Below are positions 16,233 to 39,354 of a stretch of DNA of 64,000 nucleotides, piece by piece; the first letter of the stretch is position 1, and every line of letters starts with the position of its first letter. The DNA is taken from IMG/VR virus record IMGVR_UViG_2778261268_000002. One strand, written 5' to 3'. The position numbers and the translations under genes are program-made. The stretch comes from a virus. Taxonomy: Duplodnaviria > Heunggongvirae > Uroviricota > Caudoviricetes. The notes beneath the pieces are model-generated. The model was given only the letters and a program-made list of their open reading frames with translations, ran no database searches and was not told the origin of the DNA.

Positions 16233-16249
16233 AATGCTCTAATAAATTT
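16233..16249 (+). promoter_or_regulatory. Repressor (C1-type) operator
   Basis: AATGCTCTAATAAATTT, one mismatch to the recurring ATTGCTCTAATAAATTT motif. Confidence 0.5.
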
Positions 16250-31775: not shown

Positions 31776-31853
31776 GATCAGGGATCTATATGGATCTAAT
31801 TGGGATCTGTATGGACCTAATTATTGGATCTACCCAGTGGATAATGTGGATAA
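31776..31853. other. oriR: Plasmid origin core: GATC cluster and tandem DnaA boxes
   Basis: Five GATC sites within 55 bp (31776-31830) followed by AGTGGATAA and TGTGGATAA DnaA boxes. Confidence 0.7.
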
Positions 31854-33722: not shown

Positions 33723-34007
33723 CTAACTTACCTGAACCAGGCCGTCTCCGGACGCTACGGTAGATCCGCATGAAACAGGGTCACCAACGCATACGATCCC
33801 TTTACCATTGACGGTAAACCATGCCCTGGTTGATATAGCTTGCCCACCGTGCGTACTGTTTCCATCGGTATGCTGTGCATATTGCTTACCATCAACTAAC
33901 ACTTCGACTCCGTTGACTTTAAGTAGTGGTTCACTCTCTACAGGAGGCCTGGATGGGAATCCTCCGTGCCCCGAACAAATGCTGTCTTTTGTTGCAATAC
34001 TTGCCAC
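33723..34007 (-). CDS. PAAR-like / gp5.4-like spike-tip protein
   Basis: 94 aa; pattern VNG..V.VDG...HTDG..THGG....VNGKGIVCVGDPVSCGSTV resembles PAAR-repeat proteins. Confidence 0.4.
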   Translation of the reverse strand: MASIATKDSICSGHGGFPSRPPVESEPLLKVNGVEVLVDGKQYAQHTDGNSTHGGQAISTRAWFTVNGKGIVCVGDPVSCGSTVASGDGLVQVS

Positions 34008-34088
34008 GTCATCACCAATTATTTGCTCTGATTTTCGTTATTTTAACTCAGGTTGTTTGTGGTCTACATGGCGTTTACCTATTATAAA

Positions 34089-34105
34089 ATTGCTCTAATA
34101 AATAT
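34089..34105 (+). promoter_or_regulatory. Repressor (C1-type) operator
   Basis: ATTGCTCTAATAAATAT. Confidence 0.55.
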
Positions 34106-34176
34106 TGTTTTTTATGTCGTATTTTCGGTACCATTCAGCCATCGCCCTTCAATGGGCATTTGTTTGGAGTCGTCAG

Positions 34177-34461
34177 ATGCAGATGGAGCTAATAAGCCGC
34201 AAAGAGTTCGATAGCCGTGTAACCAGCGGTGAACTCGACAACTTGCAGGCTATCAAGGTGAAAGAAGGCTTTTGCCTCATTGGGAATCAGAGCGGAACAA
34301 ATCGCGTTTTTATGCTTCGCCGTACGGATTTGAAGCCATTTGTCTGGAAGAACGAAATTGGTCCCAGCTCATACGCTCAAACGAGGGGGGGCCACAACCT
34401 GGCCTTTTTCTACAAAGACGAGCTTTCTGTGGTTGATATTCAAGGGTTACAACATGTTTAA
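34177..34461 (+). CDS. Hypothetical protein upstream of the rdgC homologue
   Basis: Start uncertain (track ORF begins 34105). Confidence 0.4.
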
Positions 34462-35359
34462 GCACTGGAAAAACATTACTATTTATAAACTTTCTCGTGA
34501 GGCGGATCTGACCGACTTAGAAGATAAAAAGAAAATGATCCTTTTCACGCCATGCGGTAGTCAGGATATGGCCAAGTTCGGTTTTGTATCTCCATTTGGT
34601 GATAATTCCGAAGTTATCGCTATGCATGGAAATGGTTTTATCCTTGTTGAAGCAAAGCGCGAAACAAAAATTCTTCCCCCGCCGGTTATCCAGCGAGCTA
34701 TTCAAGAAAAAATTGAAAAACTTGAGCAAGAACAAGCGCGTAAACTGAAGAAAACAGAGAAGGACTCCCTGAAAGACGAAGTTCTGCATTCTCTTCTGCC
34801 ACGAGCTTTTTCAAAGTTTTCTGTTATCCAGGCGATCTACGACGGTTCAACTAAACGTATCTATATCAATGCCAGCGCGCGGCAGGCAGAGGATATGCTC
34901 GCGCTTATGCGTAAGTCTCTGGGTTCTCTTCCTGTTGTTCCCCTGAGTGTTGAAAATCCCATTGAATTAACGCTGACCGACTGGGTACGTGATGCTCGTG
35001 CTCCACAGGGATTTCAAATGGGGGATGCGGCAGAACTTAAGGCAGTGCTTGAGGATGGCGGTATCGCCCGAGTGAAAAAGCAGGATTTGGGAAGCGATGA
35101 AATTTCCACACACCTGGAAGCTGGCAAGCTCGTCACAAAGTTGGCACTCGACTGGCAGAACCGCATTAAATTTACACTGGACCATAACTTCAGCCTTACC
35201 AGCGTCAAATTTGCGGATGAATTGCTTGAGCAGAACTCTGATATTGATAGTGAAGATGTAGCGCAGCGACTGGACGCAGATTTCTTCCTGTTAACCAGTG
35301 AAATTTCGTGCCTGGTTGATGCTCTGGTAAATGCCCTGGGCGGAGAGGCTAAGCAGTGA
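34454..35359 (+). CDS. hrdC: Recombination-associated protein RdgC homologue
   Basis: 301 aa from ATG at 34454; ...[13 protein letters not shown]...KILPPPVIQ...[26 protein letters not shown]...[10 protein letters not shown]...LGGEAKQ, near-collinear with E. coli RdgC. Confidence 0.75.
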
Positions 35360-37374
35360 GAGAGCTGTGCTATGGATCTGTTTGCAGTGGAATTGAAGCC
35401 GCGAGCATTGCCTGGGAACCGTTGGGTATGCGTCCGGCGTGGTTTGCTGAGATCGAGCCTTTTCCATCTGCCGTTCTTGCGCACCGCTGGCCCCATGTCG
35501 CCAACCTTGGCGACATGACAAAACTCGCCCAAAAAGTCCAGGCAGGAGAAATTGAAGCCCCTGATATGCTCGTCGGGGGTACGCCTTGTCAGGCATTCAG
35601 TATCGCGGGCTTACGTGGTGGGCTTGATGATGAGCGCGGCGCGCTAACTTTGAAGTATGTGGAGCTTGCAAATGCAATTGACGACAAACGGGCTGAGTCC
35701 TTCCTCAAACCAGCAGTTATCGTCTGGGAAAATGTCCCAGGAGTCCTGTCATCAGCAGATAACGCGTTCGGATGTTTCCTTGCCGGATTGGCTGGAGAAG
35801 ATGCGCCATTCGAACCTGGTGATCGACCTGAATCACGAAAAAGTAATACGTTCTGGCGGTGGGATGTCAAAACCGGTTGCCATGCTCCAAAGTGGCCGCA
35901 GTGTGGTTGTATTTATGGACCGCAGCGAAAAGTGGCCTGGAGAATCCTTGATGCCCAATACTTCGGAGTGGCACAACGACGCCGACGCGTGTTTGTTGTC
36001 GCAAGTGCTCGAACAGACCTCGATCCCGCAACGGTACTTTTTGAGTTCGAAGGCGTGCGCCGGAATATTGCGCCGAGCAGAGGCGAGGGGAAGGAAACTA
36101 CCAGATATACTTCAAACATCGCTATCAGAACTTGCGATGATACAAACATAATTGCCATGGCACATGGGCAAGGAGGGGCTGAGATAAAAACCGATAATTC
36201 GGCACCAACTTTGACATGTAACCATGAAGCACCAATTGTATTGCTCGGCGACGGTAGAATGCGCCGTCTTACCCCTGTCGAATGTGAAAGGCTGCAAGGT
36301 TTTCCTGATGGGCATACGTTGATCCCGACGGAAAAGCGTAAAAAAGTTAATTCAGATGAACTGGCATATCTTCGCAATCACTATCCAGATTTAAGCGAAG
36401 AAGAGGTCGCGATGCTTGCAGCTGACGGACCGCGTTACAAAGCGATCGGCAATAGTATGGCAATACCAGTAATGTGCTGGATTGGAGATCGGATTACTAA
36501 GGCCGTATGTCGGCAGAAAGAAGGAAGTGAAACAAAAGAGCGAAAAGTTAAACCAGCGGCAGAATTCGAACGGTCCATATTCAAATGGGCTGGTGGAAAA
36601 TTTGGTGTTCTGGAACAAATCTTTCACTATTTGCCAGAAGGGAAGCGCCTGATTGAACCTTTCGTTGGTGGCGGAGCTGTCTTCATGAATGCCGGATACC
36701 AGGAAAATCTGCTAAATGATGTGAATGCTGACCTGATTAACTTTTACAAGACTCTGCAACGCGAGGCGCATTCACTTATCACTCTGGCACATCGTTTCTT
36801 CCTGGACTACAACACCCAGGAGGGATTCCTGGCAGTACGGAATGCGTTTAACAAACAAGTCTATGATGATTTACATCGCGCAGCGGCGTTTTTGTTCCTG
36901 AACCGACATTGTTTTAATGGATTGACGCGCTACAACCAGGCCGGTGAGTTCAATGTCGGTTATGGGAAGTATAAAACTCCGTATTTCCCATTACAGGAGA
37001 TGGAAGCCTTCCTCGGTGCGGAAGGGCGGTCTGAGTTTGTATGCGGTGATTTTGCAGCAGTGATTGAAGCTGCCGGAGAAGGAGATGTCATCTTTTGCGA
37101 TCCGCCGTATGAACCGCTCCCCAATACAGAGGGGTTTACGAACTATTCCGGTCATGACTTTAAGTTTGAAGAGCAAAAACGCCTGGTGTCTCTGTTGACG
37201 GATGCTCATCGCCGAGGTGCAAAGGTACTCATTACTAACAGTGGCGCGCCAAACGTCAGAGAACTTTATCAGGACAGTGGCTTCAGAGTGGAACCTCTCT
37301 TTGCCAGACGTTCTGTGTCTTGTAAGGGAGACACTCGTGGTGTTGCTCATGACGTTATGGCTATATTGCTCTAA
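35356..37374 (+). CDS. dmt: Bifunctional DNA methyltransferase (N-terminal cytosine-C5, C-terminal Dam-like adenine-N6)
   Basis: GTG start overlapping the hrdC stop; C5 motifs [27 protein letters not shown]; C-terminal WAGGK and DPPY motifs. Confidence 0.8.
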
Positions 37375-37381
37375 TAAATTT
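37365..37381 (+). promoter_or_regulatory. Repressor (C1-type) operator overlapping the dmt stop codon
   Basis: ATTGCTCTAATAAATTT followed by an inverted degenerate copy AAATTTATTAGTGTAAT. Confidence 0.55.
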
Positions 37382-37558
37382 ATTAGTGTAATATCACCTC
37401 AATGAATCGTGATTTATAGAGCGATTTAGCTGTTAGCCGCGACAGGCGCGGCGGCAAGTATGGCGGGGTAGTGACTCCTTCCCCATCATGACGCCGAGTT
37501 GCCAGGTTGACCATACGCCTAAGTGGCAACACCGAAGTGCGTTACGAGCTTCCAGTTT

Positions 37559-37584
37559 GCCCATCTTCGGGTGGGCGTTTTTTT
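37559..37584 (+). terminator. Rho-independent terminator
   Basis: GCCCATC-TTCG-GGTGGGC followed by TTTTTTT. Confidence 0.6.
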
Positions 37585-38050
37585 CAGGGTTTTCGTCATG
37601 GTTAGCGACTTTGCGGCGGTTTAGAAACTGACCATTAAAGTAAATGCAAACGATGATCTGATGATGGTAGCGGCCTAAGAAGCCAGACGCCACGGGGTAT
37701 GAGTCGTCCCCCGTCAAAAAATCGACCGCAGAGTGTCCCCGTCTGTGTATTAGGGAACGGGGAGGCACAACAGGTAAGGGCGCTGGTTCGATTAACCAGA
37801 TGAGCGAGAAGGGGTCATCTTTTTGGTCAGCGTCCTTACCTGTTACGTCCTTTTTCATTCTGCGTAACAGCAATTGCTTTTAGCAATTTGAAGATAACGT
37901 CCTACTACGGGTGTATCCCGTCATGCTGAAGGCGCTAATCACGCTGGAAGCCAGGGTTGTGCATCCCCTGTTACCGAATTGCAGCCAGGGCGCGGTGCGC
38001 CGAAAAGCATACGGAGGTGGAAGCCCTCGCCGGAGACGTACCCGGCAAGT

Positions 38051-38126
38051 GATGGTGTAGCTCAGCGGTTAGAGCGGTTGACTGTTAATCAACGGGTCGA
38101 TGGTTCAAATCCATCCACCATCGCCA
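38051..38126 (+). tRNA. tRNA-Asn (anticodon GTT)
   Basis: Cloverleaf with acceptor GATGGTG/CACCATC, anticodon loop CTGTTAA, T-loop GGTTCAAATCC, encoded CCA. Confidence 0.9.
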
Positions 38127-38128
38127 AT

Positions 38129-38204
38129 GCCGGTTTAGCTCAGTTGGTAGAGCGCCTGCCTTGTAAGCAGGATGTCAGCGGTTCGAGTCCGTTAACCGGC
38201 ACCA
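38129..38204 (+). tRNA. tRNA-Thr (anticodon TGT)
   Basis: GCCGGTTTAGCTCAGTTGGTAGAGC..., anticodon loop CTTGTAA, T-loop GGTTCGAGTCC, encoded CCA; 2 nt after tRNA-Asn. Confidence 0.9.
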
Positions 38205-38767
38205 GCACAACAGGTAAGGGCATTCTCCCTTATAGGGCTTGGCTTAAATGCATCGAGTGCTCTTACCGTTGTGATGAAGTGCAGCTCTTTGAAGCAACCA
38301 GAAGATAAGCATCTGGCTTCACAACATAAACCGCAGGAACGACCAATAAACGGTAGTCCGTATGGAGAACACCCCGTTGAGGAAGAGGCCTGGCCGGAAC
38401 CGTAACCGGCGACTGGTAATGTGTGTAAATGGAGCGAAATATGTGGGCGTTTAACGGGATACGGGTTGTAACAGCGATTATTAACGGCGAACTTAAGTAT
38501 TCACGTTTCGAGACAAATGAACGTGATGGGAAATGTATTGGTGTGCGGTTAGTAAGAGAATACGCATAACAACTACAACGTTGAGAACACTGGCGTAACG
38601 GGGTCATATCCCAATCTATGAATAAATGTTGCGTTGCAGCGTGACAACCAGTGTTCTCAACATTGTGGTGAATGCACAGGCTGATGTGCCGCAACTACAG
38701 TAGTGCGCGCTTTGCGGGGCTTGCTACAACCCTGTGTCGGAGTTCAGCACCGACCATCACAATCACT

Positions 38768-38854
38768 GGAGAGTAGGGAGCATGGTGCTCAAACGGTCTT
38801 GAAAACCGTCCCATTGCGCAAGCGATGATGGTTCGATTCCATTACTCTCCGCCA
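38768..38854 (+). tRNA. tRNA-Ser-like element (anticodon TGA; class II, possibly pseudo)
   Basis: Acceptor GGAGAGT/ACTCTCC, anticodon arm ACGGT-CTTGAAA-ACCGT, long variable arm with GCAA tetraloop, T-loop TTCGATT, CCA; D-arm is short. Confidence 0.45.
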
Positions 38855-39117
38855 GTGCAACGTTAAGAGTATTTGGCTAATTAAGCGAATGCCGGAAGCA
38901 GAACCGGATCACCAAATGCGTACAGGCGTCATCGCCGCCCAGCCAGCCAAGTGCTCTTACCATTGCGGTGAATGCGGCTATGCGCACGCGGAACAGTTAA
39001 AACAATCCTCCTTAGTGGTTAAGTCAAACATCCCGGCGTTAATTGTTAACTGGTTAACGTCACCTGGAGGCACCAGGCACCGCAGCTTTTTTATTCGTTA
39101 AATAATGGAGTGAGAGG

Positions 39118-39354
39118 ATGCAGAACAATCCGAACAAATGTCGAACGCTATGGGTGCGGTTATATATTTATGCCGTCCTCTGTTTGATTGTGTCACTGGT
39201 TCTGTATGTTTGGCTTTTGCCAAATATGATCTCATCTAACAGCACAATACTTGTATTGTTGGGAGTCCTTTTCGCGCTCATTTACCCGGCTTTCGCAGTA
39301 GTCTTTTTTCGTGAAAAAACCAGGAAATTAATTAATGAAAAAAACGTTGATTAG
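39118..39354 (+). CDS. Small integral membrane protein
   Basis: 78 aa, two hydrophobic helices; overlaps the start of the downstream lipoprotein gene. Confidence 0.5.
   Translation: MQNNPNKCRTLWVRLYIYAVLCLIVSLVLYVWLLPNMISSNSTILVLLGVLFALIYPAFAVVFFREKTRKLINEKNVD

Follow-up and report, generated by a model that had tools for sequence, protein, structure and literature searches.

The closest described relatives of the gene considered here are dmt of phage P1, whose product (AAQ14041.1, formerly Dam) is the experimentally studied member of the group with respect to GATC methylation, pac cleavage and C1 control, and dam of phage P7 (AAQ07538.1; AF503408, 68963-70981). Both GenBank records annotate the gene as a bifunctional methyltransferase, with notes that put the cytosine-C5 (C5) activity no higher than 'perhaps', and our literature searches returned no experimental report that either protein makes m5C. 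Packaging depends on methylation of GATC in the pac site, as stated in two papers that refer to Sternberg & Coulby (1990) for it (PMC12707154, PMC7253447). P1 requires dmt in hosts that are dam- (PMC12707154, PMC7253447, PMC11437467); in a dam+ host the gene is non-essential as judged by CRISPRi (PMC10695390), and by rt-qPCR it behaves as a C1-controlled gene that is induced in lytic growth (PMC4713147).

Identity and context of the methyltransferase gene

The window (the whole stretch of DNA analysed, 64,000 nt) is of a P1/P7-type phage-plasmid. It is colinear with P7, with 97.7% nucleotide identity across uhr-hrdC-dam-Op(ban)-tRNAs, and it keeps the context of both P1 and P7, namely Op68-Pdmt, uhr, hrdC, dmt, Op72ab, tRNA-Asn and tRNA-Thr. 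The single 672-aa ORF originally proposed to carry a C5-methyltransferase followed by a Dam-like domain is present as described, with support from Pfam, NCBIfam and motif matches, and its GTG start overlaps the hrdC stop codon (GTGA). The product is 98% identical to P7 Dam, which is of equal length, and 90% identical to P1 Dmt (754 aa), the divergence from the latter being concentrated in the target-recognition domain (TRD). This near-identity and the conserved context place it in the P1 Dmt/P7 Dam orthologue group; judged by its sequence, the ORF is the known dmt/dam gene of P1/P7-type phage-plasmids and no discovery. It is very probable that this gene encodes two AdoMet-dependent methyltransferases, is controlled by C1 through Op68 and marks GATC sites for pac, with Op72ab serving for control of ban. 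The coordinates of its parts and neighbours are collected in Table 1.

In P7 the operon is likewise upf64.0/uhr-hrdC-dam, with Op(dam) upstream and Op(ban a/b) over the stop codon, and P1 Dmt shares with the window its two-domain architecture, operon and operators. The window protein differs from P7 Dam by a handful of substitutions, none of them in the TRD, and eight substitutions (V71M, S113A, T120A, G161R, A165T, A351V, R374C and R424H) are private to it relative to both P1 and P7. Minus-strand ORFs lie within dmt, for example at 35913-36377 and 36991-37350, and were treated as coding-frame shadows. The first operon gene, uhr, has no match in Pfam or NCBIfam.

Table 1. Features of the dmt operon and its flanks (coordinates are those of the window)
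Feature	Position	Strand	Evidence and remarks
C1 operator Op68 (Odmt), ATTGCTCTAATAAATAT	34089..34105	+	1 mismatch to consensus; identical to P1 Op68
Pdmt sigma-70 promoter; -35 TTGTTT 34105-34110, -10 TACCAT 34129-34134	34105..34134	+	Position transferred from P1 annotation
uhr, 94 aa, first operon gene	34177..34461	+	Position and length of P1 uhr/P7 upf64.0; PHROG 2213, E 2.6e-62
hrdC, 301 aa, RdgC-family, second operon gene	34454..35359	+	Pfam RdgC, E 2.4e-97; P1/P7 annotation
dmt (P7 'dam'), 672-aa bifunctional DNA methyltransferase	35356..37374	+	GTG start, TAA stop 37372-37374
C5 catalytic core, aa 1-240 (motifs I, IV, VI, VIII)	35356..36075	+	Family-consensus motifs; pLDDT >90 over most; Foldseek M.HhaI, DNMT3
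Empty intein insertion site, codons Pro77-Cys78 of motif IV	35584..35589	+	Alignment with 1013-aa homologue P0045
C5 TRD, aa 241-302, P7-type allele	36076..36261	+	Identical to P7; sole block differing from P1 Dmt
C5 module C-terminal part, aa 303-385 (motifs IX, X)	36262..36510	+	Motif residues at family consensus
Charged linker between the two enzymes, aa 386-404	36511..36567	+	pLDDT <50 at 392-399; between Pfam domain boundaries
Dam-family N6-adenine methyltransferase domain, aa 405-672	36568..37371	+	phmmer E 3.5e-57 to E. coli Dam structures; Foldseek
P2ban promoter; -35 37349-37354, -10 TAAATT 37375-37380	within 37349..37394	+	Transferred from P1 annotation
P1ban promoter; -35 TTGCTC 37366-37371, -10 TAATAT 37389-37394	within 37349..37394	+	Transferred from P1 annotation
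C1 operator Op72a (Obana), over dmt stop codon and P1ban -35	37365..37381	+	Perfect 17-bp consensus ATTGCTCTAATAAATTT; identical to P1/P7
C1 operator Op72b (Obanb), inverted partner, 6-bp overlap with Op72a	37376..37392	-	2 mismatches; identical to P1/P7

Operators and promoters at the two ends of the operon

The window contains nine matches to the C1 operator at three or fewer mismatches, against 0.41 expected, and none of 100 shuffled sequences reached nine. One of them, Op68, lies 1.25 kb upstream of dmt, the third gene of uhr-hrdC-dmt, in a segment near-identical to P1 and P7; it is the Odmt of the P1 record and the Op(dam) of the P7 record, where it is 'predicted to control expression of upf64.0, hrdC and dam'. 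It overlaps the dmt promoter, Pdmt, which was missed by our own consensus scan, so that the call rests on the P1 annotation.

The original prediction attributed control of the gene to a repressor operator over its stop codon, paired with an inverted degenerate copy. Both sites are where they were said to be, one perfect and the other with two mismatches, and the gene does appear to be under C1; the assignment of the pair to dmt, however, did not hold. The two sites correspond to Op72ab, which is annotated as controlling the tRNA-tci-ban operon, and they miss the dmt promoter. The ban region aligns with P1 as near-identical, the differences being upstream of the operators plus one base downstream. 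Following the annotation of P1 and P7, which is alike on this point, we assign Op72ab (Oban) to control of the next operon, ban, and Op68 to control of dmt.

It is highly improbable that the pair at the stop codon controls dmt itself, be it by antisense transcription, as a roadblock or through a loop formed with the upstream operator. Op72a and Op72b do physically overlap the last dmt codons, the whole operon lies between Op68 and Op72ab, which are 3.3 kb apart, and C1-mediated looping between operators, which counts in favour of such an arrangement, is known from the c1 region of P1. Nevertheless, a site at the 3' end is unable to block the initiation of dmt transcription, the embedded promoters P1ban and P2ban face downstream, away from dmt, and a separate operator-promoter pair already stands upstream of the operon in the correct place. 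Under the assignment of Op72ab to ban there may still be some interplay at Op72 through read-through from Pdmt into the ban operon; no terminator-like site was found on the + strand between the dmt stop codon and Op72. The lesson is that an operator lying across a stop codon is to be assigned to the transcription unit that follows. A literature search for Op72 and Op68 returned unrelated papers only.

The P7 record also predicts an internal late promoter, 'LPdam2', which might give a Dam-only product. In the window this site reads AAGTTAATT...TGAACT, compared with AAGTGACTT...TAAAAT or TAGAAT in accepted late promoters, and since the curated P1 annotation has no such promoter we rejected it as unsupported. 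Scanned with Rfam, the dicF-like region downstream gave no match to DicF at E <= 0.1.

The two methyltransferase domains

The C5 half matches the Pfam C5 DNA methylase family PF00145 from aa 8 (E 2.2e-35; 123.1 bits, cut-off 22) and the NCBIfam model TIGR00675 dcm (115.6 bits, cut-off 100.65). Motif IV is GGTPCQAFS, in which Cys78 is the catalytic cysteine, and is accompanied by motifs VI (WENVPG), VIII (QRRRRVFVV) and X (GNSMAIPV), with motif IX also at consensus; these agree with the family at positions conserved to 97-100% (motif IX: 90-100%) among 143-146 relatives. In the AF2 model of Dmt, which has a mean pLDDT of 84, the C5 core exceeds 90 over most of its length, and Foldseek matches it to M.HhaI, HaeIII and DNMT3 at TM 0.6-0.7. 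A Dcm-like specificity for CCWGG, as implied by the original prediction, is unsupported, the Dcm model PRK10458 (NF007772) giving 20.4 bits against a cut-off of 710 and covering motif IV alone.

The Dam half is matched at aa 411-644 by the D12 N6-adenine methylase family PF02086 (E 1.7e-56; 192.2 bits, cut-off 22) and by TIGR00571 dam (248.6 bits, cut-off 114.85), and it contains PFVGGGAV (FxGxG) and DPPY (582-585). Residues K410, N521, L523, R525 and Y539 align with K9, N120, L122, R124 and Y138 of E. coli Dam, which are GATC-contact residues in the E. coli Dam-DNA structures. The domain model superimposes on E. coli Dam (2ORE, 4RTN) with a TM of 0.91 and an rmsd of 2.3-2.7 A (Foldseek). Its score of 242.8 bits with the E. 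coli Dam equivalog NF008152 is under the cut-off of 441, making it a Dam-family member and no orthologue of the host Dam. The domain differs from that of P1 at eight amino acids (97% identity). Both domains look intact at the level of sequence, the catalytic motifs of the two halves being present at family consensus.

Every documented phenotype of Dmt concerns GATC methylation, and the protein is often named simply an N6-adenine methyltransferase in papers, as would suit a Dam half that alone is functional and a C5 half that is vestigial or purely structural. To this may be added the split or incomplete dmt of some laboratory P1 genomes, the substitution G161R in the window copy (the position is Gly in 136 of 142 relatives) and the sequence of C5 motif I, VCSGIEA, which differs from the textbook FxGxG. 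This motif I variant is, however, itself 97-100% conserved across its clade (143 relatives), which would make it a clade trait and no lesion. Loss of the C5 activity is also at odds with the intact Cys78 in PCQ, ENV, QxRxR, motif IX and GNS, all at highly conserved family residues, and with a dN/dS of 0.24 for the C5 core relative to P1 (0.10 for Dam). Two distinct TRD alleles are moreover each in frame across hundreds of plasmids, and an intein that occurs at the catalytic cysteine in relatives has kept its splice residues, as would be expected if splicing to an active enzyme were under selection. We therefore regard a C5 half without activity as quite unlikely, and favour a protein with two working methyltransferases.

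Target recognition and the role of Dmt

The window TRD carries the hallmark P-T-L at 284-286. Its pLDDT in the AF2 model is about 30 (29-35 over 245-291), too low for the cytosine target to be predicted from structure. In P1 Dmt the TRD, which stands between motifs VIII and IX, has 82 additional residues and an unrelated sequence, and so the cytosine target is probably different. In PLSDB the P7-type allele is present in 184 plasmids and the P1-type in 257. Many relatives contain a 341-aa intein at the catalytic Cys, whereas the window copy is free of it; a phmmer intein scan placed the intein at the identical site in seven of 149 representatives, and in PLSDB it occurs, with either TRD allele, in 133 plasmids. 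That of the 1013-aa homologue, which has a LAGLIDADG endonuclease, keeps the splice residues C1, HN and the +1 Cys. Literature searches for a dmt intein found nothing. It is a serious possibility, falling a little short of an even chance, that the C5 half works as an active specificity module open to exchange, the P1 and P7 TRDs directing m5C to different sites and being swapped among P1-like phage-plasmids under restriction or defence pressure, with an intein homing into the catalytic-Cys codon of both alleles. Mapping the m5C sites of both alleles would close a gap of some 20 years.

The following course of events would accommodate these features. The polypeptide would comprise two independent AdoMet-dependent DNA methyltransferases joined by a short flexible linker. 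In the lysogen, C1 bound at Op68 would shut Pdmt off, leaving host Dam alone to methylate the plasmid prophage and with it the five GATCs of oriR. Upon induction or infection C1 control would be lifted and Dmt made early. Its Dam half would then methylate GATC on the fast-replicating phage DNA and keep pac fully methylated, as pacase requires for cutting and for the start of headful packaging, a step shown for P1 and carried over here on the strength of 97% identity. The C5 half would, most likely, modify phage DNA at short sites chosen by the TRD, probably other than the P1 target given the P7-type allele, and its likely use would be protection from restriction in new hosts. Downstream, Op72ab and the embedded ban promoters would start the next C1-controlled operon (dicF-like region, tRNAs and ban helicase). 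Since c1 and pacA/pac, like lpa, fall outside the window, we infer the repressor and the target from the family. The window has no pac site, and its sole GATC cluster is formed by the five sites of oriR.

The original prediction described an anti-restriction or self-marking enzyme with no restriction gene nearby. The last point is borne out: none is annotated within 20 kb on either side in P7, with which the window is colinear, and the nearby non-P7 segments of the window encode ParA, ParB and an SPFH protein. 'Self-marking' is not far from the role on record, in which methylated GATC in pac serves packaging, and an anti-restriction role for the C5 half is a plausible conjecture. It seems unlikely that Dmt as a whole serves mainly against restriction, or belongs as methylase to a restriction-modification (R-M) system, rather than marking DNA for packaging or replication. 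Phage orphan methylases commonly shield against host restriction (PMC12707154), orphans of the C5 family occur widely among unrelated phages, and diversity of TRD alleles is the expected product of diversifying selection by restriction systems. On the other hand, the absence of an endonuclease gene within 20 kb means that this is no R-M system, enteric hosts are normally Dam+ and would gain little added protection from GATC methylation, the demonstrated requirement for GATC methylation is in pac cleavage, and P1-type phages have a separate, dedicated anti-restriction system, Dar (PMC12707154). We retain the packaging mark as the documented role of the Dam half.

Outside the P1/P7 group the Dam half resembles E. 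coli Dam (2G1P, 2ORE, 4RTJ), DpnM and T4 Dam in fold, FxGxG, DPPY and most GATC contacts, but E. coli Dam is a stand-alone protein of 278 aa, and its Y119 and P134 are replaced by F and G in the window domain. The C5 half has the same motif set as the orphan phage C5 enzymes of the 'CSGIEA' clade (Burkholderia phage Bcep22, Caulobacter phiCbK-like, Vibrio and actinophage), which are mostly 30-55% identical to its N-terminal domain and belong to a family with 4,294 representatives at E <= 1e-30. These enzymes are mostly without a Dam fusion, a C-terminal Dam being present in 10 of the 149 closest 50%-identity representatives (phmmer). The multispecific C5 enzymes of Bacillus temperate phages (SPR, phi3T type) are likewise orphans with exchangeable TRD modules, expressed on induction (PMC12707154), although they array several TRDs on one polypeptide, whereas P1/P7 Dmt has one TRD per allele together with a separate N6-adenine enzyme.

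Domain organization of the dmt product

The ORF known as dmt in phage P1 (and as 'Dam' in P7) begins with a GTG that shares bases with the stop codon of the preceding gene (GTGA), with a Shine–Dalgarno-like GGAGAGG located 7 nt upstream. Its product contains a C5-cytosine DNA methylase domain starting at residue 8 (Pfam PF00145, E-value 2.2e-35) and a D12-class N6-adenine methylase domain at residues 411–644 (PF02086, E-value 1.7e-56), and scores above the curated cut-offs of both the NCBIfam dcm superfamily and dam subfamily models; the original prediction of a single ORF fusing C5 and Dam-like domains is thus borne out by the ORF call, Pfam and NCBIfam.

When the protein was aligned with 146 of the 4,294 C5 family representatives recovered in a full HMMER scan (E-value ≤1e-30), all of its C5 catalytic positions were found to agree with the family consensus, including motif IV with Cys78, motifs VI (ENV), VIII (QRRRR) and IX, and motif X (GNSMAIP). 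At motif I the protein has VCSGIEA instead of FxGxG; this variant is 97–100 % conserved within the clade and is therefore a family trait, not damage. In the Dam half, the motifs PFVGGGAV and DPPY are present, and it keeps the residues aligning to E. coli Dam K9, N120, L122, R124 and Y138, which we take, from Dam–DNA structures, to act in GATC recognition. At the level of sequence both domains, and not merely one of them, are unbroken, with the catalytic motifs of each half present. The dN/dS values between the window and P1 genes (0.24 over the C5 core, 0.10 over the Dam domain; both from small counts) point to purifying selection on each. An AlphaFold model (mean pLDDT 84) shows both methyltransferase cores well folded, with a linker of low confidence between them (residues 392–399); superposition of the Dam half on E. 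coli Dam gives a TM of 0.91, the N-terminal half finds structural matches in M.HhaI and DNMT3, and residues 245–291 of the target-recognition domain (TRD) are modelled without confidence. No enzymatic activity of the C5 half is reported for any family member in the searchable literature. A window-specific substitution, G161R (codon at 35836–35838; glycine in 136 of 142 relatives), lies within the insert that separates C5 motifs VI and VIII and is a caveat for the intactness of this copy.

Features of the dmt operon, its operators and the ban-operon leader
Feature	Coordinates	Strand	Remarks
Op68 (Odmt)	34089–34105		C1 operator annotated as controlling dmt; overlaps Pdmt −35; identical to P1
uhr	34177–34461	+	First gene of dmt operon, behind Op68
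hrdC	34454–35359		Between uhr and dmt; RdgC-like
dmt	35356–37374	+	672 aa; GTG start, TAA stop
Op72a	37365–37381	+	C1 operator; perfect 17 bp consensus; covers dmt TAA stop
Op72b	37376–37392	inverted	C1 operator; 2 mismatches to consensus
tRNA-Asn(gtt)	38051–38126	+	3′ of Op72ab
tRNA-Thr(tgt)	38129–38204	+	3′ of Op72ab
tRNA-Ser(tga)	38768–38854	+	3′ of Op72ab; no tRNA annotated at this position in P1 and P7 records
CAT-anticodon tRNA	40190–40265	+	3′ of Op72ab; tRNA-Ile2 in P1 record

C1 operators and the ban-operon leader

Nine C1 operator sites are present in the window, where 0.41 would be expected by chance. The pair over the dmt stop codon is base-for-base identical to P1 Op72ab (Obanab), a divalent operator that contains the downstream-facing promoters P1ban and P2ban and whose annotated role is control of the ban operon. 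It had been proposed that dmt is under repressor control from this pair; C1 control stands, as does the description of an operator over the stop codon paired with an inverted degenerate copy, but the operator named belongs to the next transcription unit (ban), and Op68 is the one annotated for dmt. In P1, dmt behaves in rt-qPCR as a C1-controlled gene that is induced upon lytic induction (PMC4713147). The + strand shows no terminator-like site from the dmt stop to Op72, so transcription from Pdmt may continue into the ban operon. Six further operator matches, at 16233, 17904, 47785 (−), 51409, 51458 (−) and 53551, fall at the places where P7 has Op(c4), Op(rep), Op(26), Op(sht a/b) and Op(hea), so that the entire C1 regulon layout is conserved. 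The uhr product matches PHROG 2213 ('nucleoside triphosphate pyrophosphohydrolase', E-value 2.6e-62) and has no Pfam or NCBIfam match.

Downstream of Op72ab, approximately 37489–37590 is homologous to P1's 'dicF-like region' and ends just 3′ of Pban in a terminator-like hairpin (37558–37577) followed by a T-run; no Rfam match to DicF was found there at an E-value of ≤0.1. An STnc100 match at 38964–39084 is sub-threshold (40.1 bits versus a gathering score of 47). The leader also encodes a lipoprotein-like SPFH/Band-7 protein of 275 aa (39335–40162, +; Pfam E-value 9.7e-31), where P1 and P7 carry tciA/terB.

Genomic context and a proposed role

The window is colinear with P7 except for a few replaced modules, and 34000–38415 is 97.7 % identical to P7 and about 96 % identical to P1. 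Six segments find no counterpart by blastn in the aligned part of P7 (13776–16235, 19679–22357, 27888–30429, 38414–38729, 39084–40181 and 54997–55791), and the genome is therefore mosaic; the third carries a ParB/ParA pair differing from that of P7 (27944–28945 and 28962–30158, −). The earlier remark that no restriction gene lies nearby holds, since the P7 annotation contains no restriction endonuclease up to 20 kb on either side of the gene and the segments near dmt that differ from P7 carry genes for ParA, ParB and the SPFH protein. The dmt methyltransferase is an orphan enzyme. The c1 repressor gene, the late activator gene lpa, and pacA with its pac site lie past the window end. GATC sites cluster in the window only at oriR (31776–31830), where five of them lie beside the RepA iterons; oriR is a plasmid origin known to depend on Dam.

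In the lysogen, C1 bound at Op68 would hold the uhr–hrdC–dmt operon off, as suggested by the P1 rt-qPCR data and GenBank operator annotation, carried over through the identical operators; because dmt would be repressed, the oriR GATC sites would need methylation by host Dam. Induction would lead to early Dmt synthesis, and the Dam half would methylate GATC sites of replicating phage DNA, yielding a fully methylated pac site that is cleaved for packaging. This role was shown in P1, and we infer it here from the 97 % identity. Passages in reviews citing Sternberg & Coulby (1990) give dmt as essential in dam− hosts (PMC12707154, PMC11437467, PMC7253447), and a CRISPRi screen found it dispensable in a dam+ host (PMC10695390). 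The C5 half would probably add m5C at a TRD-defined site, which could plausibly protect the phage from restriction in new hosts.

Relatives, TRD alleles and an intein

PLSDB contains 498 plasmid records with the dmt gene, and almost all of these come from E. coli or Salmonella. The P7 orthologue is of the same length and 98 % identical, with an identical TRD, whereas P1 Dmt (754 aa, 90 % identical) is the same apart from its TRD allele: the divergence lies entirely between C5 motifs VIII and IX, where the P1 segment is unrelated in sequence and 82 aa longer. These two unrelated alleles (window 36076–36261 versus L001:4577–5008 in a comparison sequence) recur among P1-like plasmids, with P7-type TRD DNA in 184 PLSDB plasmids and P1-type in 257. 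Neither probe matches about 57 of the 498 records, which could have truncated genes or represent additional alleles. Since the TRD differs between alleles that are both present among these plasmids, the cytosine target is probably allele-specific. CCWGG specificity is unsupported (Dcm model, 20 bits versus a cut-off of 710).

In many relatives Dmt is otherwise the same protein but is lengthened to 1013 or 1095 aa (P7-type and P1-type TRD, respectively) by a 341-aa intein (Hint_2 and LAGLIDADG_3; beginning CFTAGH and ending VVHN, with a +1 Cys). The intein splits motif IV precisely between Pro77 and the catalytic Cys78. Examples are the phage RCS47 dmt (L004:1788–2810) and proteins P0045 and P0034. 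Intein DNA is present in 133 PLSDB plasmids, and the intein occupies this same position in seven of 149 distant family representatives; the window site (35584–35589) is empty. No paper describing this intein was found in the searchable literature.

The fused ORF is a known and already named gene: the GenBank P1 and P7 records describe its product as a bifunctional DNA methyltransferase, N6-adenine 'and perhaps' C5-cytosine, and the P1 record gives GATC as the adenine target. The nearest known item for the C-terminal domain is E. coli Dam, and that for the N-terminal domain is a large clade of orphan C5 methylases from phages, among whose 149 closest representatives only 10 carry the Dam fusion.
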